From assembly GCA_963815145.1 (NCBI GenBank), contig CAWFFS010000027.1, forward strand, positions 448,751 through 512,750: a DNA stretch of 64,000 nucleotides, read 5' to 3'. The translations under genes were made by a program, and so were the position numbers. Shown here piece after piece: positions 3,391 through 40,179 of the stretch. Under the pieces are notes generated by a model, which made no database searches, was not told the DNA's origin, and was given only the letters and a program-made list of their open reading frames with translations. This DNA is from an uncultured delta proteobacterium. GTDB lineage: Bacteria > Desulfobacterota > DSM-4660 > Desulfatiglandales > HGW-15. Position 1 is the first letter of the stretch; every line of letters starts with the position of its first letter.

Positions 3391-4140
3391 ATGGCTAATC
3401 AAGAACATTCCTCCGGAAATTCATCCGGTGATGGATGGATTCAATCTCTTATACACTCGGCATTATCCTACTACGCAGGTCTGATTTCCAATCCTTTTAA
3501 AAGTGGACTCGCCTACTTTGCTGGCGGACTTATCGTTGCCCTGATTGTAGGGTGGGTGATTTTCCCAATGGTCCTGTATTCAAAACAGCAGCAGCCTGTC
3601 GATTTCAATCATGCACTGCATATGGATCCGAATATCGTCAGCAAGATAAAGGGAGTTAATATAAATTTTGGCAACACTGAGGCTGAAAGATGCCTTTTCT
3701 GCCATTCCTTCCGCGCTGATGGCAGTTTTGCAGGTATTCCCAAACTGGCCTTATGTGAAAAATGCCATGATGGCTCACTTCCTCCGCTGGGTGAATCCCC
3801 CGAAGAGGCGTTGTTTTTAAAGGACTACGTTAGAAAAGGGAAAGAAGTTCCATGGCTTATCTATTCAAAGCAACCTGACTGTGTTTATTTCTCTCACATT
3901 GCTCATGTAAAAAAGGGAGAAATGAAATGCAGGACATGTCACGGAGACCATGGTAAAACAATGACCCTGCCAACATATGAAAAGAACCGGATATCGGGTT
4001 ACAGCATAAACATCTGGGGGAAAAATATAGCAGGAATTAAAACAAACAGCTGGGACAGCATGAAAATGGATGACTGTGCAGCCTGCCATACTGAAAAAGG
4101 GCATGAAGAAGACAATGCCTGTTTTGTCTGTCATAAATAG
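3391..4140 (+). CDS. qrcA: Membrane-anchored pentaheme cytochrome c (QrcA-like)
   Basis: Five CxxCH motifs (CLFCH, CEKCH, CRTCH, CAACH, CFVCH) and an N-terminal TM helix. It is the first gene of a cytochrome / Mo-pterin-like / FeS / NrfD operon. Confidence 0.65.
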   Translation: MANQEHSSGNSSGDGWIQSLIHSALSYYAGLISNPFKSGLAYFAGGLIVALIVGWVIFPMVLYSKQQQPVDFNHALHMDPNIVSKIKGVNINFGNTEAERCLFCHSFRADGSFAGIPKLALCEKCHDGSLPPLGESPEEALFLKDYVRKGKEVPWLIYSKQPDCVYFSHIAHVKKGEMKCRTCHGDHGKTMTLPTYEKNRISGYSINIWGKNIAGIKTNSWDSMKMDDCAACHTEKGHEEDNACFVCHK

Positions 4141-4154
4141 TGAGGTTTATAAAT

Positions 4155-6605
4155 ATGAAATCTAATGGAAAAAACATTACCGAACTATTAGCCATAAATC
4201 GTAGAAATTTCGTAAAACTTGCCGTTGGTGCTGCCGTTGGTACAGGACTCTCGCCGCTTCCATGGAAACTGTTGGATGATAGTTCAATATTCTCCCAGAA
4301 TTTTCCATGGGTACCGGTCCCTGAAACCGGTGAGTTCACCAATGTAAAATCTAACTGTTCATTGTGCCCGGGTGGTTGTGGTATTGAAGTAAGGAAAGTC
4401 GGGAATAGAGCGGTTAAGATAGAAGGCCGAACCGATTCTCCTGTTAATCCTGGAGGGATATGCCCTCTGGGCGTGGGAGGCCTGCAACTCCTCTACGATG
4501 AAAACAACCGTTTTACAGGACCTATGAAGAGAAAAGGATCAAGAGGATCCGGAATATTTGAGCCAATCAGCTGGGATGAAGCCCTTAAGATACTGGCACA
4601 TAGGATTCTTGAGTTGAGAAACAAGGGAAAGGCATCCTCCATTGTTGCGGTTGACGGGAACCGGAACGGATCGACAATGTCTGTTATGATCGAAAGATTT
4701 CTCAAGACCATAGGAAGCAATAATTATATGACTATCCCGACAGCTGAGGATACCGCTTCTATTGCCTCCGGTCTTATGTATGGCTCGGACAACCCTGTAA
4801 GCTATGATCTCGAAAATTCGGATTTCATCCTTAGTTTCGGATGCGGTCTTCTCGAAGGCTGGGGGGCCCCCGGGCGTATCCTCAACGCATGGGGCATATG
4901 GAAATCAGTCGAAGACAGAGGTAAAGTAACAATTATGCAGGTAGAATCAAGGGCTTCCAATACTGCTTCAAAGGCAGATAAATGGATACCTGCAAAACCC
5001 GGAACCGAGACAGCCCTTGCCCTTGGAATAGCAAATGTAATTATCAGAGAAAATCTCTACGACAAGGAATTTATAAATAACAAAACGTTCGGATTTGAGG
5101 ATCATGGCAAATATAAAGGTTTCAGGGACCTTGTTCTGAATGCCTATACGCCGGAAAAAGTATCGGTAATTACAGGCGTAAAACCAGACGAAATAATTGC
5201 AGTAGCAAGGGCCTTTGCCAGGGCAAAATCACCTGTAGCCATATGCGGAAAGGGGAAAGGCCGGTTAAATGGGGATGTTTTCGAGTTCATGGCAGTCTAT
5301 GCGCTCAATGCCCTTACAGGAAACATTAATAAGCCGGGCGGTGTGTTAATCAGTAATCCTCTCCCGCTCAGCCCGCTTCCAGAGGCTGAAATTGATGATC
5401 TTGCAGCCGAATCATTAAAGGCACCCTGCCTGACAAACGTAGGAATTAAACTAGGCACAAGCTGCAACCGGTTCAATGCACTTACAGACAGCATTCTATC
5501 TGAAAAAACACAGACTGTTGACACTTTGCTGGTATTCTCTTCAAATCCTGCCTATACACTGCCGGATGGAGGAGACTTCTACCAGAGCCTTACAGAATTA
5601 CCGTTCATAGTCAGTTTCTCACCATACCATGATGAAACGGCTTTCATGGCAGACCTCATTCTCCCGGATCATACATATCTGGAAAAGACTGATGATATTC
5701 CATGTCCGGCATCTCTTCAGTATAATTTCTACGGCATGACTCAGCCTGTTATAGCGCCCCTCTATGACACGAAAAACAGTGGGGATGTGTTGCTTCGCCT
5801 GGCCGGCATAATAGGCGGATCGGTCGAGAAGTCGTTTCCCTGGAAAAACTATGAAGAGGTATTAAAGGTTAGGGCTCGGGGCCTTTTTGACAGCGGCGAA
5901 GGCACATTAAACTATAATCCTTCGGCCACGCCTTGGAAGCTTATAAAAAACGACACAAAAGTTAAGCCCGATTATTCAAGCTTCGACAATATGTGGGGAA
6001 GGCTTAAAAAAGGTGGAATTTGGTACAACCCCACATCCGGCATAAAACCGGGTAAGGACCTGTTCACAACTGAGAGCGGAAAATTTGAATTCTTCAGCAA
6101 CAGATTGAAATCGGCTTTTGAGACATCGTCGGAAAAACCTGAGCTTTCCGCCCCGGAAGAAATACTTTTCCTTCCCCATTTTGAACCAGGGGAAAAGGCT
6201 GAAGGTATATACCCCCTGAAAATGATACCTTATGAATTAATAAACCTTTCAAGCGGATGGCTTCCGGATCCGCCATATCTTTACAAGACTCTGTTTGATG
6301 ATCAGCTTCGGAAGGATGACTCTTTTGTAGAGATAAATCCGGCGACAGCCCGTAAATATGAATTAAAAGAGGGTGATAAAATAACAATCGCCTCCGAAAA
6401 AGGAAGTGTTGAAGCAAAGGTGCGCCTATTTGAAGGTGCAATGCCTGATGTAGTATATATGCCGATGGGATTCGGTCACACCGCGTTTGATGATTTTGTC
6501 AGAGGCAAGGGTTGCAATCCGAACAGTCTTATGGGCGCATACACAGATCCATTAAGCGGCCAAACCGCATGGTGGAATACTCCAGTAAGAATTAAAAAAG
6601 TATAG
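4155..6605 (+). CDS. qrcB: Molybdopterin-oxidoreductase-family large subunit with Tat signal (QrcB-like)
   Basis: Twin-arginine motif NRRNFVKLAVGAAVG and N-terminal FeS motif CSLCPGGCG. About 815 aa of MopB-family length and architecture. ATG at 4155 is preferred over GTG at 4140. Confidence 0.65.
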   Translation: MKSNGKNITELLAINRRNFVKLAVGAAVGTGLSPLPWKLLDDSSIFSQNFPWVPVPETGEFTNVKSNCSLCPGGCGIEVRKVGNRAVKIEGRTDSPVNPGGICPLGVGGLQLLYDENNRFTGPMKRKGSRGSGIFEPISWDEALKILAHRILELRNKGKASSIVAVDGNRNGSTMSVMIERFLKTIGSNNYMTIPTAEDTASIASGLMYGSDNPVSYDLENSDFILSFGCGLLEGWGAPGRILNAWGIWKSVEDRGKVTIMQVESRASNTASKADKWIPAKPGTETALALGIANVIIRENLYDKEFINNKTFGFEDHGKYKGFRDLVLNAYTPEKVSVITGVKPDEIIAVARAFARAKSPVAICGKGKGRLNGDVFEFMAVYALNALTGNINKPGGVLISNPLPLSPLPEAEIDDLAAESLKAPCLTNVGIKLGTSCNRFNALTDSILSEKTQTVDTLLVFSSNPAYTLPDGGDFYQSLTELPFIVSFSPYHDETAFMADLILPDHTYLEKTDDIPCPASLQYNFYGMTQPVIAPLYDTKNSGDVLLRLAGIIGGSVEKSFPWKNYEEVLKVRARGLFDSGEGTLNYNPSATPWKLIKNDTKVKPDYSSFDNMWGRLKKGGIWYNPTSGIKPGKDLFTTESGKFEFFSNRLKSAFETSSEKPELSAPEEILFLPHFEPGEKAEGIYPLKMIPYELINLSSGWLPDPPYLYKTLFDDQLRKDDSFVEINPATARKYELKEGDKITIASEKGSVEAKVRLFEGAMPDVVYMPMGFGHTAFDDFVRGKGCNPNSLMGAYTDPLSGQTAWWNTPVRIKKV

Positions 6606-6619
6606 ATGTGAGGCAGAAC

Positions 6620-7432
6620 ATGGAAAAAACAGAAACCCATGGACACAAATATGGAATGGCAATTGATCTGGACAAATGTACCGGATGCAGTACATGCATG
6701 GTCGCCTGTGCTTCTGAGAACAATGTTACAGTACGCCGCGATGAATCCGACAAGGAACGCAGTATTGCCTGGATGACACTTTATAAGATTAACAACGGTA
6801 AACCTTTTCCTGATACGGAAGTAAGCTACTTCCCAAGGCCATGTATGCAATGCGATGAAGACGGGCACGGTGGAGAACATTCGCCATGTGTATCTGTGTG
6901 TCCCGTCACCGCCACAAAGCTTGATCATCATACAGGGATTGTCTCCCAGATATACACAAGATGCGTGGGATGCAGATACTGTCAGGCAGCGTGCCCTTAC
7001 CATGCGAGATACTTTAACTGGTGGGATGGTTATTCGCTGGTCCAGCCTTTTGCGAAAGGAATGGAGAGGTCCCTTTCCCCGGAGGTATCTGTCCGCATGA
7101 GAGGTGTTGTGGAAAAATGTACTTTCTGCCATCACCGCCTGATGAGGGCAAAAAACAAGGCATATGCTGAAGGCAGAAAAGAACTCAGAGAAGAAGATTA
7201 TATTACTGCCTGCACCGAGGCCTGTCCGGCACAGGCCATCACATTCGGTGACCTTAGTAACCCTGAACATCAGGTTTCAAAACTGGCTAAAAGTGACAGG
7301 GCGTTCAGGCTTCTTGAACGATTGAACTCAAAACCAAAAGTGTACTACCTTTCATCAAAAGACTGGGTAAGAAAATTCGCGGATAATTATTTACCTGAAC
7401 AATTCAAGCCTGTCACAGAGAAAGTTATCTAA
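6620..7432 (+). CDS. qrcC: 4Fe-4S ferredoxin-type subunit (QrcC-like)
   Basis: Several cluster motifs: CTGCSTCMVAC, CMQC...VCP, CVGCRYCQAACP, CTFCHHR...CTEACP. Confidence 0.7.
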   Translation: MEKTETHGHKYGMAIDLDKCTGCSTCMVACASENNVTVRRDESDKERSIAWMTLYKINNGKPFPDTEVSYFPRPCMQCDEDGHGGEHSPCVSVCPVTATKLDHHTGIVSQIYTRCVGCRYCQAACPYHARYFNWWDGYSLVQPFAKGMERSLSPEVSVRMRGVVEKCTFCHHRLMRAKNKAYAEGRKELREEDYITACTEACPAQAITFGDLSNPEHQVSKLAKSDRAFRLLERLNSKPKVYYLSSKDWVRKFADNYLPEQFKPVTEKVI

Positions 7433-7447
7433 TGAGGAGGATATAGA

Positions 7448-8683
7448 ATGGATTCCGCTTTCATCCCGGAAGGAACAAAAAGATGCTCTACATCGAGTTT
7501 TTTCTTCTGGACTCTTCCATGGGTTCTGCTTCTTGCCTTTGGGGGTTTTTGTGCAGCACTGTGTCTGATCCTTGGGCTGAATCAAACCCATATGAGCAAT
7601 ATCTTCGCATTCGCTCTCTGGATAGTATTCGACCTTGCGGTAATAGCCCTTGGTGCCGGTGCCTTTTTTACCGGGTTTCTTACCTATATCATTAAAAAAG
7701 ATGAACTGAAAGATATTATCAACGCCGCAGTAATAATAGGTTTTATATGCTATTCAGGCGCAATGGGCCTGTTGGGCATTGATATTGGACAACCTCTCAG
7801 GGGCTGGTTTTTCTTCTGGCATTCGAATATTCATTCCATGCTGGTTGAAGTCTCATTCTGTATTTCCTGTTATCTCAGTGTCCTTGCAATAGAATATATC
7901 CCTATAATACTGGAAAACCGCAAGCTTGATAAGGTAAAGGATTTTCACTTTTTCGGGCACCATCTTCATCATATAATGGCAATTTTTGCCGCCACAGGTA
8001 CATTCCTTTCATTCTTTCATCAGGGTTCACTGGGTGGTATGTTCGGTGTCATATATGTAAGGCCCTTTGTGGCACGCGGTGGTTTCTATATCTGGCCATG
8101 GACTTTCTTTCTCTTCGTGCTCTCAGCCATTGCGGCAGGTCCCTGCTTTACAATCCTTTGCACAAAACTGACCGAGGCAATATCAAGGAAAAAGCTTGTC
8201 CCCGATAGTGCCACACAATTACTCGCAAAGATATCAGGCGGTCTGCTTGCCCTGTACATGGTATTGAAGATAGCGGATACAATTGGGTGGATATATGGCC
8301 TGCCACAGGCGGGTCAAGGCCTTACCGAATTCCTGAGGACCGGATATTATGGTAAGATGTTGCTTATCTTCGAGATAGGGATATTTGGAATAATTCCGAT
8401 GATTCTACTGTTGATTCCTGCGATCAGAAAAAATAAATTATGGCTGATAATTGCCTGTCTTATGAACTGTACAGGAATAATTCTTAATCGATATATTGTT
8501 ATAATTGGATCAGCGGCAATACCTGTAATGCCCTTTGACAGGTTATGGACTTATATGCCAACATGGCAGGAATGGGGAATATCACTGGGCATGATAGGAT
8601 ATGGAGTTCTTATATTTTCCATTTCATACAGATATCTGCCGGTTTTTCCGAAGGAAAAAGTATTGAATTCTTTAAAGGCTTAG
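7448..8683 (+). CDS. qrcD: NrfD/PsrC-family integral membrane quinone-interacting subunit (QrcD-like)
   Basis: 411 aa and polytopic, about 10 hydrophobic helices. AGGAGG RBS. Its position after the FeS subunit is typical of CISM/Qrc complexes. Confidence 0.7.
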   Translation: MDSAFIPEGTKRCSTSSFFFWTLPWVLLLAFGGFCAALCLILGLNQTHMSNIFAFALWIVFDLAVIALGAGAFFTGFLTYIIKKDELKDIINAAVIIGFICYSGAMGLLGIDIGQPLRGWFFFWHSNIHSMLVEVSFCISCYLSVLAIEYIPIILENRKLDKVKDFHFFGHHLHHIMAIFAATGTFLSFFHQGSLGGMFGVIYVRPFVARGGFYIWPWTFFLFVLSAIAAGPCFTILCTKLTEAISRKKLVPDSATQLLAKISGGLLALYMVLKIADTIGWIYGLPQAGQGLTEFLRTGYYGKMLLIFEIGIFGIIPMILLLIPAIRKNKLWLIIACLMNCTGIILNRYIVIIGSAAIPVMPFDRLWTYMPTWQEWGISLGMIGYGVLIFSISYRYLPVFPKEKVLNSLKA

Positions 8684-8997: not shown

Positions 8998-10611
8998 CTA
9001 ATTCCAGATAACCGTGTCGCGCTTCCAGTTTTCATCATCTTTTTCAGGGCAGTCCAGATTATAATGCAGCCCCCTGCTCTCCTTTCTGAGTATGGCGCAT
9101 GAAATTATCAATTCACCGACAAGTGCAAGGTTGCGGAGTTCGAGCAGATCTCTTGTAACTGTAAAGTTCCAGTAGTACTCCTTAATCTCGGATTGAATAT
9201 TTTCAATCCTTGCTCTTGCCCTTGCCAGCCTGCGGTTTGTTCGTACTATCCCTACATAGTTCCACATCAGGCGCCTTATTTCATCCCAGTTATGGGTAAC
9301 GACAACCATTTCTTCGCTGTCTATAGCTATCCCCTTCTCCCAGGCCGGCGCTTTTGAAAATGGTATCTCCCTGTTGTTTTCCAGATCCCGTTTTGATCTT
9401 ATTGCTGCCTTCCGGGCAAAAACAAGCGCCTCAAGCAATGAATTACTTGCAAGTCTGTTTGCACCATGAAGCCCGGTACAGGCAACTTCGCCGATCGCAT
9501 AAAGATTACTTATGTTAGTCATACCATTTTCATCTGTAACCAATCCTCCGCACATATAATGGGCAGCAGGGACCACCGGTATTGGTTGTTGAGTTATGTC
9601 TATCTGATATTTTAAACAATTCTCATAAATATTTGGAAAACGTTCCCTGACAAAATCCTTATGTTTATGACTTATATCCAGGTATACACACTCGTCACCG
9701 CTCTTTTTCAGCTCCATATCAATGGATCTTGCCACAATATCCCGGAAGGCAAGATCCTTCAGAGGGTGATATTTTTCCATAAAACGTTCACCCCTGCTGT
9801 TTAACAGTATTCCGCCTTCGCCTCTTACTGCCTCGGATATCAGAAAGTTTTTTGCAAGGGGATGGAAAAGACAGGTAGGATGAAACTGCACAAACTCCAT
9901 ATTTGCCGCCTTTACACCGGCACGATATCCCATTGCTATTCCGTCACCCGATGCAATATCCGAATTGCTTGTATACAGGTATATCTTCCCGACACCTCCG
10001 GCAGCAAGAACAGTAACCTTGGCCTGAAATGTGATTACTTCATCATTTTTTACATCCAGGACATATGCACCCCAGCAGGACTCCCTTGATTCGGATTTAA
10101 CGATCCCGCGTCTTATAAGTTTTGAGATTGTTATCAGATCGATTGCCATGAAATCTTCATAGATTGTTATATTTTCATTTTCTTCGGCCCTTTCAAGGAG
10201 CGCCCGCTCCACCTCATTGCCGGTTTTATCCTTTGTATGAACAATCCTTCTTTTTGAATGGCCACCTTCCATCCCGAGTTCAAGATCATCTGTTCCATCA
10301 TTTTGTCTGGAAAAATTTACTCCCATGGAGATAAGCTCCCTGATCATTTCCGGACCATTTTTTACTACCATTTCAACAATTTTTTTATTGCACAGGCCAT
10401 CACCCGACTTTAAAGTATCCTCGATATGTAAATCAAAACTGTCGTCGAGATTAAAAACAGAGGCAATTCCGCCCTGTGCATAGTTGGATGAGGCCTCCAT
10501 TTTTTCTTTTTTCGTAACTATTGCCACCTTTCCTGATTTTGCTGCCTCAAGGGCAAAACTCAAACCGGCAATGCCCGTACCAATAACCAGATAGTCGGTT
10601 TTAATTTCCAT
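8998..10611 (-). CDS. nadB: L-aspartate oxidase
   Basis: FAD motif DYLVIGTGIAGL plus FVQFHPT and HGANRLASNSLLE, typical of the NadB/succinate dehydrogenase flavoprotein family. 537 aa. Confidence 0.9.
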   Translation of the reverse strand: MEIKTDYLVIGTGIAGLSFALEAAKSGKVAIVTKKEKMEASSNYAQGGIASVFNLDDSFDLHIEDTLKSGDGLCNKKIVEMVVKNGPEMIRELISMGVNFSRQNDGTDDLELGMEGGHSKRRIVHTKDKTGNEVERALLERAEENENITIYEDFMAIDLITISKLIRRGIVKSESRESCWGAYVLDVKNDEVITFQAKVTVLAAGGVGKIYLYTSNSDIASGDGIAMGYRAGVKAANMEFVQFHPTCLFHPLAKNFLISEAVRGEGGILLNSRGERFMEKYHPLKDLAFRDIVARSIDMELKKSGDECVYLDISHKHKDFVRERFPNIYENCLKYQIDITQQPIPVVPAAHYMCGGLVTDENGMTNISNLYAIGEVACTGLHGANRLASNSLLEALVFARKAAIRSKRDLENNREIPFSKAPAWEKGIAIDSEEMVVVTHNWDEIRRLMWNYVGIVRTNRRLARARARIENIQSEIKEYYWNFTVTRDLLELRNLALVGELIISCAILRKESRGLHYNLDCPEKDDENWKRDTVIWN

Positions 10612-31254: not shown

Positions 31255-31484
31255 ACAAAAAGTGATTTTATTAACATTATCTATGGGTTCTGTCCATAAT
31301 ATTCTGGGCGCAATCTTGAAAAGGTATAAAGTAAATCAATAAACCAAAAATTACTTGACATTTCGGCATGCTCAACTCAAAATGCACCTATAAAATTCAT
31401 GGCAGAAGCCATGCCAAATTTAAATTATATTTAGTATAAAGCTTGAATTATCGCTGTAAACCGGCGATTTAAATTATTGAAAAA

Positions 31485-31545
31485 GGCCACGAAGGTCATT
31501 GTCCTCGAAACAGGGACGTGATGTCGTGGCCTTTTTTTTATTTTT
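31485..31545 (+). terminator. Terminator-like hairpin element, GCCACGAAGG family copy 1, inside the divergent ppiD / TonB-receptor intergenic region
   Basis: AAAAAGGCCACGAAGGUC...GUCGUGGCC followed by U8. Confidence 0.55.
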
Positions 31546-31611
31546 AAAAGCCCAAAAATTACACAATATGGATGATTGTTATTAAAAAATTGACTGATAA
31601 ATAAAAATGTT

Positions 31612-31760
31612 GGAGGACGGCGTGCACCGGCCAGGGTTTCCACCGTCCTCCGTGTGAAGTGCTCCTGGGAAAGGAATACTTCAAAGTGATTGATACCACT
31701 GCTTTCCTTTCCCGTCAAGGTGCCTCTCATTACTATTGTGAGAGGCACCGCGAGCACCTT
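31612..31760 (+). promoter_or_regulatory. Structured 5' leader (hairpin plus predicted three-way junction) upstream of the TonB-dependent receptor operon
   Basis: P0 is GGAGGACGG / CCGUCCUCC. P1 is AAGUGCUC / GAGCA(C)CUU and encloses P2 (GGGAAAGGAA / UUUCCUUUCCC) and P3 (GGUGCCUCUCA / UGAGAGGCACC). Confidence 0.4.
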
Positions 31761-31808
31761 ATGAGGTTTTAACAATAGGGTTGAAGATAAAAGGGAGAAA
31801 TTTATTCG

Positions 31809-33974
31809 ATGCGAATGTGGAAATGGAAACAGTGGAAGACAAGTGTTTTATTAATATTAATTATGCTTTCAATTCCGGCTATTGCCATGGCCGAACAGAG
31901 GGATATGAGTGAAGCAATCCAGAAACATCTGACTTCGGAAGAAATTGCACTGGAAGAGATCGTTGTGACTGCTGATGCGGGAATCAACCAGATGGACACC
32001 AAAGTGGGTATCAAGAAAATCGAAAAGGGCAAAAACATAAATATACCGGATGTACTGAAATCCGAACCGGACATAGACCTGAAACGAAGGTCTCTGGTGG
32101 GTGATACGACCGACAGCCTTGCCATAAGAGGTTTTACGGGTAACCGCATTATGCTTGATATCAACGGCAGGCCGGTAAACGCTTCGGGTGTTGTTGGCGG
32201 TTATTATATCGACTGGAGTACGATCCCCCTTGATAACATAGAAAAAATAGAACTGATCCGGGGCGGAAGCTCAGTCAGGTATGGAAACAATGCCCTGGGC
32301 GGTGTTGTAAACGTGATTACAAAAAAGCCCACGGAAAAACCCACATTGACATTCTACGGAACCTACAGTGTCGGGGACGGTATTGATTCCATACAGAACT
32401 ATCGCCTGACCCACACCTATAAAATCGGCCCCTTGGGCTATTCCCTGGCTGGCAGCTACCAGAAGGCCGATCCTTTTCTCTGGAATAATGATTTTAAGGG
32501 TAAAGATTTTTCAGCTTTCTTCGATCTTGATATGCCCCTGGACGGAGAATTTACCTTCGGTTTTCAGTATGCCGATTCCGATCGGGGATTTATCCGGGAA
32601 AACAGGGTTTCAGATGATCCCGGTAATCCCGGCTTCTATCAAAAAAAGGACGATAACTATCCCCTTGCCTTCGGGGAGACCTTCAGCCCCTATTCGGGCA
32701 CTGCCTTTATTCCGGGGCCAGGGGCGAGATGGAATAAAACCAAATACTATTTTGACGCCGGTTATTCGCAGCCCATTGGTGACGCGTTCATTGATTTCAA
32801 GGTCTACAAAAATATTGAAGACCGGAAAGAGAAAAATTATTCATCCGCTGATATCAACCCGGCATACCAGGATGGCCAGCTTGTGCTGGACAGGGATGTG
32901 GCATCGGATCGCTCCTATGGCGGAAATATTGAACTTAAAAAGCCTTTTAGTGACCATGAACTGCTCCTGGGCGCTCAGCACAAGGTCCTTGCTTATGGAG
33001 ACATAACCACCAATTATATAGATATGACCTATAATAACGCCCCCTGGGTGACCATGGCGAGCCTTTCAAACAAGCCGTCATCCGAAGGTGTGACCTGGGG
33101 ATATTATATGCAGGACACCTGGACGCTTTCGGATCGTTTGACCCTGACCGGAGGACTCAGGTATGACGATTACAGGAACAGAGCCATCAACGGCAGCACA
33201 TCGCCTGAACTGAAAGACAATGCCCTCACTCCCAAGCTCACCGGTACTTATATTATAAACGACAAAGATACCATTACCGCCTCGGCATACCAGGCACTGA
33301 GGACACCGGGATTACCGGAAACCTACTGGTGGGCCAACGGAGCAACCAAAGGCAATCCTGTCCTGACGCCTGAAAAGAATAATGCAATAGAGCTTTTTTA
33401 CCGGCATAGATTCAACGGGTCAGGGCTTATAAGGCTGTCTTCCTATTATTATGATGTAAAGGACTATATCATATTCCGCTTCGACCCCACATGGCGAGGT
33501 GTATACAATATTGACAAGGCTGAGATCTACGGTGCATCTCTGGATGGCATGACAGTTTTCAATGACCGGCTTTCAGGAAGGGCATCCGTGACCTTTCAGA
33601 AATCAAAGAAGAAAGGGGATATGTACGATACTGCCGGCCTGTCGGATGAAATAGACTATCTGCCCGAATGGAAGGCCAGCGGAGGGCTTGATATTAACCT
33701 GCCAAGACGTTCTGCCCTGAATATTTCTCTAAAGTATGTAGGAGAACGCAGTGCAATCTATGCATACAGCAGTGGATATCCGGCACAGGAGTTCTTCAAA
33801 CGCGTTGAACTTGACTCCTACTTAACTGCGGATATCAACCTTAAAATCCCCGTCAGTAAACACGCGGAATTCAACTGTTACATAGAAAACCTTTTTAACA
33901 AAGAATACGAAGAGCAGTTTGGCTATCCCATGTCCGGCCGTATTATCGGCGCAGCATTTAAACTGTCAATATAA
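31809..33974 (+). CDS. TonB-dependent outer-membrane receptor
   Basis: Signal peptide, plug-domain motifs (IEKIELIRGGSSVRYGNNALGGVVNVITKKP) and a 22-strand-barrel-sized C-terminal region. Confidence 0.9.
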   Translation: MRMWKWKQWKTSVLLILIMLSIPAIAMAEQRDMSEAIQKHLTSEEIALEEIVVTADAGINQMDTKVGIKKIEKGKNINIPDVLKSEPDIDLKRRSLVGDTTDSLAIRGFTGNRIMLDINGRPVNASGVVGGYYIDWSTIPLDNIEKIELIRGGSSVRYGNNALGGVVNVITKKPTEKPTLTFYGTYSVGDGIDSIQNYRLTHTYKIGPLGYSLAGSYQKADPFLWNNDFKGKDFSAFFDLDMPLDGEFTFGFQYADSDRGFIRENRVSDDPGNPGFYQKKDDNYPLAFGETFSPYSGTAFIPGPGARWNKTKYYFDAGYSQPIGDAFIDFKVYKNIEDRKEKNYSSADINPAYQDGQLVLDRDVASDRSYGGNIELKKPFSDHELLLGAQHKVLAYGDITTNYIDMTYNNAPWVTMASLSNKPSSEGVTWGYYMQDTWTLSDRLTLTGGLRYDDYRNRAINGSTSPELKDNALTPKLTGTYIINDKDTITASAYQALRTPGLPETYWWANGATKGNPVLTPEKNNAIELFYRHRFNGSGLIRLSSYYYDVKDYIIFRFDPTWRGVYNIDKAEIYGASLDGMTVFNDRLSGRASVTFQKSKKKGDMYDTAGLSDEIDYLPEWKASGGLDINLPRRSALNISLKYVGERSAIYAYSSGYPAQEFFKRVELDSYLTADINLKIPVSKHAEFNCYIENLFNKEYEEQFGYPMSGRIIGAAFKLSI

Positions 33975-33989
33975 CAGGAGGTTTTCAAG

Positions 33990-34781
33990 ATGAGTGATAT
34001 ACATGGGACATATTTTCGGCAGGAAAAATACAACGCCTTCTGGAACAGAATGGCGCTTCATTATCCTGATCCCTTTAATTCAAAGACACTTTCGGATACC
34101 AGCGAAGTTCTTTCTGTTGTTAAAGGCAAAGGGGTGGAAATATACGGGGCAGCCATACTGGATATCGGGTGCGGTACAGGGACCTATACGCTGCCCCTTG
34201 CCAGGGATGCAGCAATGGTTACAGGGCTTGATGATTCCACTCGAATGATCGAACGCCTTACTGCTTCCATATCCAATTCCTGTTTACAGAATGTCCGCAC
34301 TGTAATGGCCTCATGGAAGGATATAGACATCTTGCAGGCGGGCTTTGAGAAGGCCTTTGATATCGTATGGGCTTCTATGACCCCTGCTGTGAGGACTCCG
34401 GAGGATTTCATAAAACTGGAGAAATGTTCAAAGAACTGGTGTGTTTATATAGGCTGGGGTGGAAAAAGAGAAGACAGCTTAATGAAAGAGGTATTTGATC
34501 TGCACGGTCTTAAGTTTGGTCCACCGCCGGGTGTGACGGAGGCGTACAATATCCTGCTGCAATCAGGGAAAACACCGACTCTTGATTATTTTGAAACCTC
34601 ATGGGACTGGACCGGAAGTGTCGATGAGGCAATGGAGTATATGGAGTTCTTTATCGAAATGCAGGGCGGAAATCCGGATCGTGGCTTGATTGAAACGGCT
34701 CTTGGCAGGCATGAACGGCAGGGCATGGTTTCACACACAACCTATGCAAAGGAAGGTATAATGGTATGGCAGGTACCATAA
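33990..34781 (+). CDS. Class I SAM-dependent methyltransferase
   Basis: Motif I ILDIGCGTGTYTLPLA and post-I VTGLDDS. 263 aa. Confidence 0.75.
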   Translation: MSDIHGTYFRQEKYNAFWNRMALHYPDPFNSKTLSDTSEVLSVVKGKGVEIYGAAILDIGCGTGTYTLPLARDAAMVTGLDDSTRMIERLTASISNSCLQNVRTVMASWKDIDILQAGFEKAFDIVWASMTPAVRTPEDFIKLEKCSKNWCVYIGWGGKREDSLMKEVFDLHGLKFGPPPGVTEAYNILLQSGKTPTLDYFETSWDWTGSVDEAMEYMEFFIEMQGGNPDRGLIETALGRHERQGMVSHTTYAKEGIMVWQVP

Positions 34782-34816
34782 GAACTGTCCATGTAGCTTT
34801 GGGATAAAATTCAGGG

Positions 34817-35860
34817 ATGACAGTGAAATATTTATTACATAAAACAGGCCATGGCACCATCACAGCAGCCTATCTGAAACAGGTAAGACACAAACTGTCT
34901 CTCCTGGGGTTGCTTATGTGTGTAATAGCACTTGTTTCGGTTTATGCGATTGCAGCGGGATCCTATTATATTCCATTTAGAGAGGTTATGAGTACTCTGA
35001 TTGGATTCAGTGATAATACCACTCGCGTGGTGATTACCAACATAAGGATGCCAAGGATTGTTGCGGCGCTTTTTTGCGGATGGGGTCTTTCTCTTTCCGG
35101 ATTGACCATACAGTCCCTTTTAAAAAATCCCCTCGGCTCTCCCATAACACTCGGCATAAGTCAGGGTGCTGCCTTCGGGGCTGCTGTTGCAATCGTTGTG
35201 TTTGGCGCAGGGATGGTCTCGGTAACTGCTTCAGCTTTTGCAGGAGGAATGTCTGCCACAATTATCATTCTTGCACTTGCAAAATTTAAACGGCTTTCTC
35301 CCCTTGCAATTATTCTGTCAGGCACTGCACTTCATTCCCTGTTTCTTTCGGGAACTTATTTGATTCAATATCTTGCAAATGAGGCCGATCTTGCCAGGGT
35401 AGTGTTCTGGAGCTTCGGAGATGTCGCCCGTTCAAGCTGGATGGAGATATGGATTATGGCAGGGGGTGTCTTTATTCTTTCCCTGTTTCTTGGAGCATTC
35501 AGGTGGGATCTGAACGCCCTTGCTTCGGGAGAAGAGACTGCAAAGGGGCTGGGAGTGAGGGTCGAACAAATAAGGTTATCCGGAATGTTTATTGCCACAC
35601 TTGTAGCTGCACTGGCAACGGCCTTTCATGGGATTATAGGATTTCTTGGGTTGATTGCTCCTCACATGGCAAGACGTATTGTAGGTGAAGATCATTCGAT
35701 TTTAATTCTCTTTTCTGCTGTTCTGGGTGCCCTGCTGCTCCTTGTGGCCGATACACTGGGGCGCGTGTTTATCGGCTCAGGGTCATTACCGGTTGGTGTG
35801 ATCACATCATTCTTAGGCGCACCAATGTTTCTTTTTCTTTTAGCCAGGGAGGTGAAATGA
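34817..35860 (+). CDS. FecCD/BtuC-family ABC transporter permease
   Basis: 347 aa, about 9-10 TM helices, typical Gly-rich FecCD C-terminus (GVITSFLGAPMFLFLL). Confidence 0.9.
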   Translation: MTVKYLLHKTGHGTITAAYLKQVRHKLSLLGLLMCVIALVSVYAIAAGSYYIPFREVMSTLIGFSDNTTRVVITNIRMPRIVAALFCGWGLSLSGLTIQSLLKNPLGSPITLGISQGAAFGAAVAIVVFGAGMVSVTASAFAGGMSATIIILALAKFKRLSPLAIILSGTALHSLFLSGTYLIQYLANEADLARVVFWSFGDVARSSWMEIWIMAGGVFILSLFLGAFRWDLNALASGEETAKGLGVRVEQIRLSGMFIATLVAALATAFHGIIGFLGLIAPHMARRIVGEDHSILILFSAVLGALLLLVADTLGRVFIGSGSLPVGVITSFLGAPMFLFLLAREVK

Positions 35861-36609
35861 ATCTTGAAGTGACAAATATCCGGTTCTCCTATAACGGTCA
35901 CCAGGTATTAACCGATGTTACATTTTCTATCGAACCGGGGCAGGTGGTATGTGTCCTTGGCGTAAACGGGGCTGGCAAATCCACCTTGCTTAAATGTCTT
36001 AACCGCATACTGAAGCCCCAAACAGGGGTTGTACTGGCTGATGGTGATGATTTATTCCATATGGGTTCCAACAGAATAGCCCGCCTTATGGGGTATGTCC
36101 CCCAGCGACACCCTGAAACACAATCTACAGTCTTTGAAACAGTACTTATGGGGAGGAAACCTTATATTCAATGGTCTCTCGGGCAGGAGGATTATGCCAT
36201 TGTAGAAGAGACTATAGAGCAGATGCATATAGCTCATCTGGCTATGCGAAAGGTTTGTGATCTGAGCGGAGGTGAAATCCAGAAGGTAATAATAGCCAGG
36301 GCTCTTGCTCAGTCACCGGAGGTCCTGCTCCTGGATGAACCTACAAGTAATCTTGACCTTAAAAACCAGCTTGAAGTCATGAGGCTGGTTCGCAGTGTGG
36401 TTAAATCGAAGGGGCTGTCCGCAGTCATTGCCATTCATGACCTGAATATCGCCCTGCGGTTTGCTGACAGCTTTGTCTTTTTAAAAGAAGGGCAGATCCA
36501 TGAAATATGCAAAAAGAACGAGTTGTGTCCTGAGATGATCCACCAGGTTTATGGTGTGGATGTGGCATTGAGTGAAGTAAACGGGCACACCCTTGTGGTT
36601 CCTTTATAA
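35857..36609 (+). CDS. ABC transporter ATP-binding protein (FecE/BtuD type)
   Basis: Walker A GVNGAGKST, signature LSGGEIQ, Walker B LLLDEPTSNLD. 4-nt overlap with the permease gene. Confidence 0.9.
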   Translation: MNLEVTNIRFSYNGHQVLTDVTFSIEPGQVVCVLGVNGAGKSTLLKCLNRILKPQTGVVLADGDDLFHMGSNRIARLMGYVPQRHPETQSTVFETVLMGRKPYIQWSLGQEDYAIVEETIEQMHIAHLAMRKVCDLSGGEIQKVIIARALAQSPEVLLLDEPTSNLDLKNQLEVMRLVRSVVKSKGLSAVIAIHDLNIALRFADSFVFLKEGQIHEICKKNELCPEMIHQVYGVDVALSEVNGHTLVVPL

Positions 36610-36633
36610 GAACACACTGCATGGAGAAGCATC

Positions 36634-37731
36634 ATGAAGAAGTTCATTATATTTGTATGTTGTTTCATTTTAGGCATCCCATTGATATCCGGTGCCGCTG
36701 CATCAATAGATGTAACCGATATGGCTGGCCGTCATGTGACAACCCAGGTTAATCCGGGCCGAATCCTGTGCCTGGGTCCGGGTACCTTGCGTCTTATCGT
36801 ATATCTTCAGGCAGAATCCAGGTTAGTGGGTGTCGAAGATATGGAAAAGATGAATCCGGGCGGAAGGCCATATTGGATTGCACATCCGGAGCTTCATAAA
36901 CTCCCCCGGTGCGGCCCCGGAGGACCGGCGGGTATAGGTAAAAAACCGGACCTGGAAACAGTTCTTTCATTAAGGCCGGATATTATATTTACCACCTATA
37001 TGGAAGGAACAATGGCCGATGATATACAGAAGACACTCGGTATTCCGGTAATTGTATTGAGTTATGGAGAATTTGCGACTTTCGATGAGACGGTCTACAA
37101 ATCATTGCTTGTCGCAGGCAGTATCCTGGACAGGGAAAAACGTGCCAGTGATGTTGTCGCATATATCGAATCCCTGAGAAAAGACATGCTGAACCGAACC
37201 AGCGAAGTACCTGATGGGGCAAGGCCATTAGTGTATGTGGGCGGCATAGGTTACAAGGGGTCATACGGCATAGAAAGTACAGAGCAGAGTTATATCCCCT
37301 TTAAATGGCTCAACGCGGATAATGTATCCGAGCGTGTTAAGGCCACCACAGGCAGCCACGTATTCATGGATAAGGAAATACTCTTAAAATTGAATCCCGA
37401 TGTCATATTCATCGATGGCGGCGGTATAGATCTGGTAAAAGATGATTTCAGAAAAAAGCCAGAATACTACCGCACCCTGCGCGCCTTTTCCCGGCAGCAG
37501 GTATATACCCTGTTGCCATTCAACTGGTATGCAACCAACATCGGGACTGCCCTGGCAGATGCCTATGCCATAGGCAGGATCATTTATCCGAAGCGATTTA
37601 AAGATATCGATCCGGAGATCATGGCTGATGAGATATATAAGTTTTTACTTGGGACGCCTGTGTATAAGGATATGAAAAAAGCTTATGGCACTATAGGGCA
37701 AAAAGCACAGTTTAAATCACTGACTAATTAA
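36634..37731 (+). CDS. Periplasmic substrate-binding protein, class 8 (FhuD/BtuF-like)
   Basis: Signal peptide, 365 aa. The pattern RILCLGPG..R..VYL and PDIIF/PDVIFIDGG is typical of siderophore/corrinoid-binding proteins. Confidence 0.75.
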   Translation: MKKFIIFVCCFILGIPLISGAAASIDVTDMAGRHVTTQVNPGRILCLGPGTLRLIVYLQAESRLVGVEDMEKMNPGGRPYWIAHPELHKLPRCGPGGPAGIGKKPDLETVLSLRPDIIFTTYMEGTMADDIQKTLGIPVIVLSYGEFATFDETVYKSLLVAGSILDREKRASDVVAYIESLRKDMLNRTSEVPDGARPLVYVGGIGYKGSYGIESTEQSYIPFKWLNADNVSERVKATTGSHVFMDKEILLKLNPDVIFIDGGGIDLVKDDFRKKPEYYRTLRAFSRQQVYTLLPFNWYATNIGTALADAYAIGRIIYPKRFKDIDPEIMADEIYKFLLGTPVYKDMKKAYGTIGQKAQFKSLTN

Positions 37732-37733
37732 TA

Positions 37734-38378
37734 ATGGAGGAAACTATCATGGATGCAAAACAAATAATGGAAGGCGATAAGTTTAAAAAATGCGCTGACT
37801 TTCACGGCCATATCTGCCCCGGTCTTTCAATAGGATACAGGGCTGCCGAAACTGCCATGGGATGGCTCAGGGAAAATCGTTCTGAGGATGAGGAGATCGT
37901 TGCCATTGTAGAGACTGACGCCTGTTCTGCTGATGCGGTACAGGTCCTTACCGGCTGCACATTTGGCAAGGGCAACTTTATTTATAAGGATTACGGAAAG
38001 ATGGTGCTTACTCTCATGAGCCGAAATAGCGGTCAGGGCGTTCGTGTGGCAATGAAGGCCGGGACCTTTTCTCCCGATGATATCCATCAAATGCTTCTCA
38101 GGAAGGTAATGAACGGGTCAGCCAGTGAGGAAGAAAGAAAGCAGTTTCAGGACCTCCATTTCAAACGGAGTTGTGACATTCTTGAGAAGCCTGAAGAAGA
38201 TCTGTTTACCATCAAGCCTGTTCAAATGGCACTGCCTTCAAAAGCACAGATAGCGCCATCCGAACCCTGTGCGCTTTGCGGGGAACCAACCATGCGCACA
38301 AAGCTGCAAGAATCTGTCCACGGCCTGATCTGTAGAGGTTGCGCGGAACAGTCTACAGCATGGTATAACACATTGTAA
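37734..38378 (+). CDS. FmdE-family protein with C-terminal Cys4 zinc ribbon
   Basis: FHGHICPGLSIGYRAA motif of the FmdE domain. C-terminal CALCGEP...CRGC. Confidence 0.75.
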   Translation: MEETIMDAKQIMEGDKFKKCADFHGHICPGLSIGYRAAETAMGWLRENRSEDEEIVAIVETDACSADAVQVLTGCTFGKGNFIYKDYGKMVLTLMSRNSGQGVRVAMKAGTFSPDDIHQMLLRKVMNGSASEEERKQFQDLHFKRSCDILEKPEEDLFTIKPVQMALPSKAQIAPSEPCALCGEPTMRTKLQESVHGLICRGCAEQSTAWYNTL

Positions 38379-38402
38379 AACTATTTTAGAGAGTGTAGTG
38401 AG

Positions 38403-38825
38403 TTGCCAAAACGAATTTGTATTATAGATGGACAGGGAGGTGGAATCGGAGCAGCTGTGATCCGGTCCATAAAGAGCAACTTTGAAGAATCAATTACGCT
38501 GATTGCTCTGGGTACAAACACCATAGCAAGCGCCAATATGTCGAAGGCTGGAGCCAACCTTGTTGCAACAGGTGAAAATTCCATATGCAGGACAGTGCCC
38601 GAAGCTGACATAATAATAGGTCCTGTGGGGATAGCATGGCCTAATGCCATGATGGGGGAGGTGACTACTGAAATTGCCGAGGCGGTTGTATCAAGCCCTG
38701 CATATAAAGTGTTACTGCCTTTCACTCAGGAGCCTGTTGAGATAATAGGCGTAGTAAAAGAACCACTACCCCACATGATTGAAAAAGCTGTAAACCTGAT
38801 TAAGGAGGTTTTAAAAAATGTGTGA
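38403..38825 (+). CDS. DUF3842-like protein
   Basis: The N-terminal IIDGQGGGIGAAVI motif and about 140 aa match my recollection of DUF3842. TTG start. Confidence 0.5.
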   Translation: MPKRICIIDGQGGGIGAAVIRSIKSNFEESITLIALGTNTIASANMSKAGANLVATGENSICRTVPEADIIIGPVGIAWPNAMMGEVTTEIAEAVVSSPAYKVLLPFTQEPVEIIGVVKEPLPHMIEKAVNLIKEVLKNV

Positions 38826-39006
38826 AGCAAACGCATATCTTATTAAAGACGGTGAGGAGATTCTTATAATGGAATCTGTAGACATGGTCACGCCTGAAGA
38901 AGAGGAGAGTTGGCATCTGGTAAATATTTTCGGCGAGCAGAAAGACGTAAAAGCCAAAATCAGGGAAATGAACCTGGTTGATCACAGAATCTTGTTTGAA
39001 GCGTAA
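38818..39006 (+). CDS. CooT-family small nickel-binding protein
   Basis: 62 aa beginning MCEANAYL. Cys2 is the Ni ligand in characterised CooT. Overlaps the upstream gene by 8 nt. Confidence 0.6.
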   Translation: MCEANAYLIKDGEEILIMESVDMVTPEEEESWHLVNIFGEQKDVKAKIREMNLVDHRILFEA

Positions 39007-39111
39007 TAAATCCAGGAATATATCTGCAGAAGCTGATTATTTTTGATTTCGGGGCGAAGTCCGAATAGTTTTTAAATATTTAACCATCATTTCATTGCAA
39101 TCTGAATAAAA

Positions 39112-39165
39112 GGCCACGAAGGTCTGTTGTATCAGTCATGATACACGCCCTTGCGGCCTTTTTTA
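39112..39165 (+). terminator. Terminator-like hairpin element, GCCACGAAGG family copy 2
   Basis: AAAAGGCCACGAAGG...CCUUGCGGCC followed by U6, with an inner stem GUAUCA / UGAUAC. Confidence 0.6.
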
Positions 39166-39192
39166 TGAACACCGATAAAAGGAAAACCATAC

Positions 39193-40179
39193 ATGGATAA
39201 AACCGAAGTCCTGCGCTCTATTAAGTATGACCTGGTAGAGTATATCCAGGCAAAGGTTTCGGTAGACTTTGGCAATGCCGGACAAATTCCCATTTCCTTT
39301 ATCTATAATAAAAAGACCTATGTAATCAAAGAAGTACTGGGCAGGTTTTTAAAGAGAGATGTTTTTTTATCCAACGGATTTCTGGTGACAGTCAATGATG
39401 GTGATGTTTTTTATATTTATTTCCATACCCGGAATTTTGCTCAACATATGCAAATATGTGAAGGAAACTGGATTTTATGTTTCAGGATACTTAATGACCA
39501 TGAGTTGATGGCTTTTTACAGGGAGGATCGAAAGGTGCTTTTAAATATGACAATGAAGATGCTCGTGGATTTCCACGGACATATTTGCCCTGATCTGGTT
39601 ATAGGTGCAAAACTCAGCGAGTATATCCAGCAACTGGTCTCTGAAACCAGTGGGTTGGATGTCGGTATATCGATTCTGGCACAGAATTGTACTTCTGCCA
39701 TTGATGCTATCCAGGTCCTGCTGGGTACAACCTTTGGAAACCAACGCCTGCAGGTCCTGGATTTTGGGAAACACATCTATTCCCGCTTAATCATCGATGC
39801 TGAAAAAAGTTACATGTTTTCCATGAGGAAGCAGTATTATGGCGATGAAGATGAATTCGAAAACCTGGAACAGAAGATTTTAAACAGCCAGATAACACTG
39901 GAGGAAGCAGTCAATTTTCAAAAATTAATGGACAGACGTATAGAGACGCTTTTTTCTCTGACACCTGCGGAGCTTTTTGGCTGTGACAGCATTGAAAGGG
40001 GACAGCCATTCTATGAAATACCAAGTATTTACCTGACATGCAGCGAGTGCGGACATCAGGTGGTAAAAAATCGATCAATAAATTACCACAATAAAATCTA
40101 TTGCGTCTCATGTTTTCAAGATGTCTGTAAAGAATGTAAACACTACAACGTTCAATGGAAGGAAAAAAACAATGGATAA
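39193..40179 (+). CDS. Fusion protein: unknown N-terminal domain (~115 aa), FmdE domain and C-terminal zinc ribbon
   Basis: FHGHICPDLVIGAKLSEY (FmdE motif). C-terminal CSECGH...CVSC...C.EC. Confidence 0.65.
   Translation: MDKTEVLRSIKYDLVEYIQAKVSVDFGNAGQIPISFIYNKKTYVIKEVLGRFLKRDVFLSNGFLVTVNDGDVFYIYFHTRNFAQHMQICEGNWILCFRILNDHELMAFYREDRKVLLNMTMKMLVDFHGHICPDLVIGAKLSEYIQQLVSETSGLDVGISILAQNCTSAIDAIQVLLGTTFGNQRLQVLDFGKHIYSRLIIDAEKSYMFSMRKQYYGDEDEFENLEQKILNSQITLEEAVNFQKLMDRRIETLFSLTPAELFGCDSIERGQPFYEIPSIYLTCSECGHQVVKNRSINYHNKIYCVSCFQDVCKECKHYNVQWKEKNNG

Follow-up and report, generated by a model that had tools for sequence, protein, structure and literature searches.

The stretch of DNA analysed here, called the window, is 64,000 nucleotides (nt) long and comes from contig CAWFFS010000027.1 of an uncultured delta proteobacterium (assembly GCA_963815145.1). 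It contains an operon headed by the gene of a TonB-dependent receptor, and positions 31612-31760, in the 5' untranslated region (UTR) before that gene, are almost certainly a real, conserved and structured leader RNA. The leader is one member of a family that counts about 45 copies; they are spread over about 40 genomes, a few of these with two or three copies, and share a conserved core of ~115 nt in an overall motif of about 115-150 nt. An earlier note on this DNA had described the region as a candidate riboswitch of unrecognised class. That description is supported by the covarying family of ~45 copies and by the lack of an Rfam match, and on such sequence-based evidence we regard the leader, with moderate confidence, as a ligand-sensing candidate riboswitch of a new class within a known kind of system.

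We propose that the RNA is a conserved cis-regulatory element of Desulfobacterota in the 5' UTR of TonB-receptor-led operons. Its core consists of a 5' hairpin (P0) whose hexaloop is NGCCAN, the linker GGUGAAG, a long hairpin (P2) with a UA loop inside a closing helix (P1), and an unpaired GUCAA strand; a further hairpin (P3) is optional. The operons would import trace-metal species, most likely a nickel/cobalt (Ni/Co)-type metal, a metal chelate or a metallated tetrapyrrole, and the aptamer would bind the imported species, or a metabolite reporting its supply, and set the translation initiation of the receptor.

Fold and family of the leader RNA

The elements of the leader in the window, all on the + strand, are as follows.

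31612..31651, +: P0 hairpin, GGAGGACGG (31612-31620) with CCGUCCUCC (31643-31651)
31612-31621 with 31642/3-31651, +: lower stem of P0, read from the sequence
31626-31628 with 31635-31637, +: short upper stem of P0, ACC with GGU, read from the sequence
31629-31634, +: P0 hexaloop GGCCAG, which holds the conserved GCCA, read from the sequence
31652..31659, +: linker between P0 and P1, GUGUGAAG in the window and GGUGAAG in the family consensus, from conservation over 34 copies
31657..31664, +: 5' strand of the closing helix P1, AAGUGCUC, pairing with 31752-31760 in the minimum-energy fold
31667..31713, +: long hairpin P2, GGGAAAGGAA (31667-31676) with UUCCUUUCCC (31704-31713)
31677-31703, +: terminal part of P2, with the conserved UA (31694-31695) inside GAUACCAC
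31714..31718, +: junction strand GUCAA, the most conserved unpaired block, from conservation over 34 copies
31719..31749, +: P3 hairpin of 11 base pairs (bp), GGUGCCUCUCA (31719-31729) with UGAGAGGCACC (31739-31749)
31752..31760, +: 3' strand of the closing helix P1, GAGCACCUU, GAGCA(C)CUU, from the minimum-energy fold and the own-partner test

The predicted folding energy of 31600-31815 is -79.7 kcal/mol, a stability that 200 shuffles did not reach once (z = -4.8). The minimum-energy structure of 31609-31830 is a 5' hairpin followed by a three-way junction, and the P0, P1, P2 and P3 helices that the earlier note had drawn are all present in the sequence and coincide with this fold. The leader stretch is single-copy in its own 5.9-Mb genome and no repeat family lies over it, which ruled out a dispersed repeat or miniature inverted-repeat transposable element.

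By comparing the leader with 60 relatives by BLASTN, we found homologs in four genomes, one of them from another family, and the conserved part corresponds to window positions 31604-31718. Of 151 genomes of the same class (GTDB Desulfobacteria), 30 have full-length matches to a covariance model (R1) that was built over this core from five BLAST-found homologs. A second model (R2), based on 34 copies, revealed five more copies in 150 genomes sampled across the phylum, about 146 of which lie outside the class. These five distant copies keep GGAAGGCAGC...GCUGCCUUCC, CC.GCCA.G, GAAG, UA.CA and GUCAA. Six further copies, 2.2-2.4 kb upstream of an operon marker gene in genomes without an earlier match, were placed by gene context only. 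The exact pattern GGAAARGNATNCTTC...TTTYCCGTCAA proved too strict, recovering three known relatives and one chance coding-region match from all GTDB species genomes and one chance match from the JGI metagenomes; therefore, a covariance model was needed.

Two contigs carry a pair of motifs on one strand a few kb apart, namely L078 (G087:C141) at 162-276 and 2672-2779 and L065 (G094:C309) at 3435-3552 and 9900-10017. In these pairs one copy stands before the receptor and the other before internal genes (FmdE proteins, or a second receptor operon), and thus the leader is carried twice by some clusters.

In the alignment of 34 copies, which was fitted to the covariance model, 87.6% of the paired cells can pair, versus 48-58% after the partners have been shifted by 1-3 columns. 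Both sides have changed in 17 of the 23 pairs; only 0-1 of 500 shuffles reach the observed measures. Beside this alignment, two independent checks were made, one with a MAFFT-only alignment and RNAalifold and the other by folding the P2 segments alone. P0 has 10 modelled pairs that are 93% paired over the 34 copies, 5 of them with changes on both sides (for example A-U in 20 and G-C in 13 copies, or G-C in 16 and A-U in 11). It was also recovered without the model from the MAFFT-only alignment of 41 copies (A-U 27 and G-C 13; G-C 17 and A-U 16), and its upper stem varies as ACC/GGU, UCC/GGA and UUCCU/AGGAA around the hexaloop NGCCAN. P2 has 13 modelled pairs, 83% paired and 12 with changes on both sides. 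Folded alone, its segment forms a hairpin in nearly every copy from quite different sequences (mean z -2.0; z < -2 in 21 of 41), with stems such as GGGAAAGGAA/UUCCUUUCCC, GUGAAGGAGG/CCUCCUUCGC, GAGGGAUACUUC/GAAGUAUUCCUC and ACCUCAACUCU/AGAGUUGAGGU.

P1 is seen in most copies, its 3' strand lying 0-31 nt after GUCAA, and its variants include GUGCUC/GAGCAC, GUACUCCUG/CGGGAGUAC, GCACC/GGUGC, GCCCCCU/GAGGGGGC and CCCCUCGA/UCGAGGGG. The 5' strand pairs with its own 3' partner at -10.5 kcal/mol versus -9.1 kcal/mol with the partners of other copies (permutation p 0.00045), in a test that ignores sequence relatedness. The unpaired nucleotides that hardly vary are those of the GGUGAAG linker, of CC..A.GG at the tip of P0, of the UA in the P2 loop and of GUCAA; the linker G, G, U, A and G are each found in 30-34 of the 34 copies, and GUCAA is kept in 32-34 of them and in all five distant copies from other classes. 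Frequent G-U pairs are compatible with the + strand only.

At the P3 position the closest relatives have a hairpin with other sequences, and in many members the P1 3' strand begins just 0-16 nt after GUCAA, a distance too short for P3 to form. P3 is therefore lineage-specific and optional and lies outside the conserved core. Of the helices in the earlier note, P0, P1 and P2 thus held up, with compensatory changes across the family of ~45 copies, while P3 did not hold as a conserved part. For tertiary pairs or pseudoknots (the P0 loop CACC with the linker GGUG, and loop-loop contacts), the only signals in a scan of all column pairs were those that subgroup structure accounts for.

The search for known RNA families with Infernal covered the 4227 families of Rfam 15. 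At gathering thresholds the window had no match, nor had 20 homolog loci and another 10 loci, and at E<=10 nothing relevant or consistent appeared in 651 nt of the window and nine homolog loci. No + strand match to the motif was found in the window or 39 homolog loci, including the cobalamin (RF00174), NiCo (RF02683) and molybdenum cofactor (Moco; RF01055) families, so the Rfam scan proposed in the earlier note returned no significant known family. The one low-E match in the window, to the SurA small RNA on the minus strand, which covers the upstream terminator and is antisense to P0, the linker and the start of P2, was discarded at 26 bits versus a gathering score of 100.

Two standard cobalamin riboswitches are present elsewhere in the same genome, at G000:C14:193504-193707 and 182387-182570 (loci L085 and L086; outside the window). 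They score 95 and 68 bits and precede another TonB-dependent receptor and a cobT-type phosphoribosyltransferase. With these two standard copies and no model match for the leader, the opinion of the earlier note that it is not a cobalamin riboswitch was borne out. Because the two coexist with the motif in this genome, corrinoid sensing would already be served by the standard class.

Operons downstream of the motif

The features that follow the leader in the window are listed below.

31793..31811, +: Shine-Dalgarno sequence (SD) GGGAG at 31793-31797 and receptor ATG at 31809, read from the sequence
31809-33974, +: TonB-dependent receptor gene, from the Pfam scan
31809..40179, +: motif-led operon, from the Pfam and NCBIfam scans

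The genes of this operon encode, in order, the TonB-dependent receptor, an S-adenosylmethionine (SAM) methyltransferase, a FecCD permease, an ATP-binding cassette (ABC) ATPase, a periplasmic binding protein, FmdE, DUF3842 and a second FmdE protein. In all copies of the family, a start codon on the same strand follows the end of the core at a distance of 30-95 nt. A TonB-dependent receptor comes first in 30 of the 33 copies whose downstream DNA could be read; of the other three, two start with a DUF4198 gene and have the receptor as the next gene, and the third is an internal copy before FmdE genes. All five distant copies likewise have a TonB receptor as the first gene. Altogether, the receptor is present in each of the 38 operons whose downstream genes were read and comes first in 35.

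Besides the receptor, these operons repeatedly encode NikK-like DUF4198 proteins (at 16 loci), periplasmic tetrapyrrole-methylase-like proteins (at 15) and FmdE fusions (at about 11), and some of the fusions have a signal peptide or a nucleoside-hydrolase domain. A small NikL-like membrane protein and an APC-type permease also recur, and a CobN-type chelatase occurs once. The ABC importers differ by genome, being of the FecCD/BtuCD, Nik/Opp (SBP_bac_5) or Znu type. Going by these predicted products, the common denominator of the operons is the receptor family together with proteins for the handling of Ni/Co-type metals, metal chelates or tetrapyrroles. No regulator gene is consistently encoded beside the motif operons.

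A tetrapyrrole (corrin/porphyrin) methylase-family protein (L071, 4847-5755, minus strand) has an N-terminal signal peptide and is apparently periplasmic; its gene directly follows the receptor in 15 motif operons, has orthologs in 27 of 209 genomes of the class and is almost never found without the motif upstream. Fusions of an inosine-uridine nucleoside hydrolase with FmdE, about 500 amino acids long and provided with a signal peptide, recur in L072 (G167) and in the L071, L073 and L082 operons.

A single in-frame TGA, always in the context SRSYRLPCP-[TGA]-DYYWWARCAS, "splits" the TonB receptor under motif control at 11 of 12 homolog loci. These loci are L071 (G160:C21, about 5800-7860, minus strand), L067, L069, L072, L073, L074, L077, L082, L065 (the copy at 9900), L083 and L084. 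A conserved hairpin, GGGCGCG-GUG-CGCGUCC, lies 15 nt after the TGA, and read-through gives a normal receptor of 694 amino acids, which makes these receptors selenocysteine-containing. Such a receptor type was predicted earlier (PMC12013277) and is already curated as NCBIfam NF049947, "PCPU motif-type". The receptor of the window itself is a homolog free of cysteine/selenocysteine (Cys/Sec) (…RTPGLPETYWWANGAT…).

Upstream of the leader lies a divergent PpiD/SurA-like gene. Between this gene and the motif, at window positions 31481-31538, a bidirectional terminator-like hairpin, AAAAGGCCACGAAGG...CGUGGCCUUUUUUU, forms a separate element. A hairpin of the GCCACGAAGG type occupies the equivalent place in a same-genus relative (L009), and similar ones occur at 59.5 and 62.4 kb of the window.

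Proposed translational control, candidate ligands and rival explanations

In the stretch from the motif to the start codon, no intrinsic terminator was found, be it in the window or in the family, and because of this, control of translation initiation, or Rho- or RNase-dependent effects, would be likelier than attenuation. The P2 3' strand is rich in pyrimidines and shows complementarity to the SD region. It pairs with its own SD at an average of -10.6 kcal/mol, compared with -8.8 kcal/mol for the SDs of other copies (permutation p < 5e-5; relatedness is again ignored), and duplexes of 10-11 bp between the two are available in about eight copies, for example CAUCUCUUUCC/GGAAGGAGAUG. In three of about eight strong copies, the aptamer fold and the SD-sequestered fold lie within 1 kcal/mol of each other; the energies computed with P2 enforced are unreliable for copies with a bulged P2, since the constraint assumed collinear pairing, and only clean cases were used. 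The 5' strand of P1 was also considered as an anti-SD and gained no specific support, its own pairing being no better than the cross pairing (p 0.07).

In the copies with a recognisable platform, the P2 3' strand can pair alternatively with the P2 5' strand or with the SD region. As P2 is part of the conserved fold, stabilisation of this fold by a ligand would free the SD, which would make the element an ON switch. Both the polarity and the platform come from modelled pairings and may differ among copies.

As for the ligand, a TonB-receptor-specific cargo, or a metabolite reporting its shortage, is favored because the motif is tied to one receptor family and to several unrelated inner-membrane importers. 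Free Ni2+ is disfavored, as the motif is found only before TonB-receptor operons, and cobalamin is disfavored by the missing model match and by the standard B12 riboswitches in the genome. Ni/Co species or their chelates are the leading candidates without being probable outright. A corrinoid or other tetrapyrrole seems rather unlikely, as does another metal species, and the same low weight goes to the case in which there is no small-molecule ligand. Orthologous operons under other regulators were uninformative in this respect, since nearly all operons with the marker gene carry the motif and none a known riboswitch.

Several observations weigh against the proposed riboswitch. The earlier note had suggested that the pyrimidine arm pairs with the ribosome-binding region; the complementarity is there, with 8 bp including G-U and -7.8 kcal/mol, but it is not specific, because the same arm pairs no worse with the SDs of other members (row mean -9.7 kcal/mol). 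In addition, the conserved fold of the window copy is 5 kcal/mol more stable than the alternative, and its SD is predicted to be 90-98% unpaired when the leader is in the conserved fold. These modelled values suggest that the proposed platform may not be operating in this copy. If the ligand is the very nutrient that is imported, an uptake operon would not usually be expected to have an ON switch. On the comparative side, P1 was not found in about five copies, the covariation of P2 was counted on the model-fitted alignment, and the own-versus-cross tests of the P1 partners and of P2 with the SD share the neglect of relatedness mentioned above.

Some of these observations would suit a leader that serves as a platform for a trans-acting factor, such as a metal-responsive RNA-binding protein, a CsrA-type GGA-binding protein or a small RNA, with no direct sensing of a small molecule. 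GGA/GGAG purine tracts and conserved loops are abundant, the platform is not uniform in the family, and the window SD is predicted open regardless. However, riboswitch aptamers are usually marked by just such features as a size of ~115-150 nt, a multi-helix junction with invariant unpaired nucleotides and a strict tie to one transport regulon, and the operons have no regulator gene as a consistent neighbor; we consider this explanation unlikely. A structured 5' end that merely stabilises the mRNA or aids receptor translation, without sensing anything, appears decidedly improbable. The 5' end of the transcript may be at P0 or close to it, and the window copy is modelled with one dominant fold and a free SD, as such a role would predict, yet it would not need the invariant junction and loop nucleotides and the second long hairpin that are conserved phylum-wide, nor does it account for the alternative SD pairing that is iso-energetic with the conserved fold in some copies.

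The operon type, with a TonB receptor, a BtuCD/FecCD-like importer and, in one relative, CobN, is classically controlled by cobalamin riboswitches, and FmdE points to molybdenum/tungsten (Mo/W) enzymes, both of which bring to mind a very divergent or rearranged member of the cobalamin, Moco/tungsten cofactor (Tuco) or NiCo class. Nevertheless, Infernal gave no match to these classes even at E<=10, and standard cobalamin riboswitches serve another TonB receptor and cobT in the same genome, which leaves this reading only a slight chance. That chance hairpins or a local repeat of this genome gave rise to the structure is scarcely credible for a single-copy stretch with a covarying family at about 45 loci of about 40 genomes. 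Weighing these explanations together, we prefer the reading of the leader as a ligand-sensing candidate riboswitch.

Relation to known metal and cofactor riboswitches

Known metal-related riboswitches mostly switch on efflux (the logic of the Mn2+, NiCo and fluoride types) or sense finished cofactors (B12, Moco), and, as far as is known, it is proteins such as NikR, Zur and Fur that control how Ni, Co, Zn and similar metals are taken up. If the candidate riboswitch is real, it would represent a new sensing route for the acquisition of trace metals or tetrapyrroles in sulfidic habitats, where such metals are scarce. Carried further, and only as a tentative suggestion, the motif could be a new riboswitch class that governs outer-membrane trace-metal uptake in sulfate reducers, including the selenocysteine receptors; it might then be the first RNA sensor for Ni/Co-type or chelate import, and perhaps an ON switch for an incoming chelate or for a metal-free cofactor precursor that reports shortage, not for the free ion. 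The ligand of the RNA would also name the cargo of the transporter and give a handle on the substrate of the Cys/Sec-motif receptors. With about 45 copies, clear covariation and a ~115-nt core, the family is suited to biochemical ligand screening.

A description of the motif was not found in full-text literature searches, nor did keyword searches of two large surveys (PMC5737381; PMC11109978) show a mention, and it is apparently undescribed. It resembles the orphan riboswitch candidates of the Breaker/Weinberg type, with which it shares a conserved, covarying structure, a position in the 5' UTR and a narrow and coherent gene association.

Among the established classes, the cobalamin riboswitch (RF00174) is similar in being a large multi-helix leader before TonB receptors and BtuCD/FecCD-type importers. 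The cobalamin riboswitch of Escherichia coli btuB acts at translation initiation, and the control exerted by the motif would probably lie at the same step. Unlike the cobalamin riboswitch, the motif is without a B12 box and is built from a 5' hairpin and a two- or three-way junction with GUCAA. Moco/Tuco (RF01055) is likewise a leader of metal-cofactor-related transport genes, and the FmdE-domain genes of the motif operons recall Mo/W enzymes; however, the motif has no match to the Rfam model and would control TonB receptors with Ni/Co-type partners instead of mod, tup or moa genes. With NiCo (czcD; RF02683) the motif would have in common that it is an RNA tied to transition-metal homeostasis genes in anaerobes. 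NiCo forms a four-way junction and switches ON efflux genes (PMC11672702), whereas the motif, which has no Rfam match, differs in architecture and precedes uptake genes.
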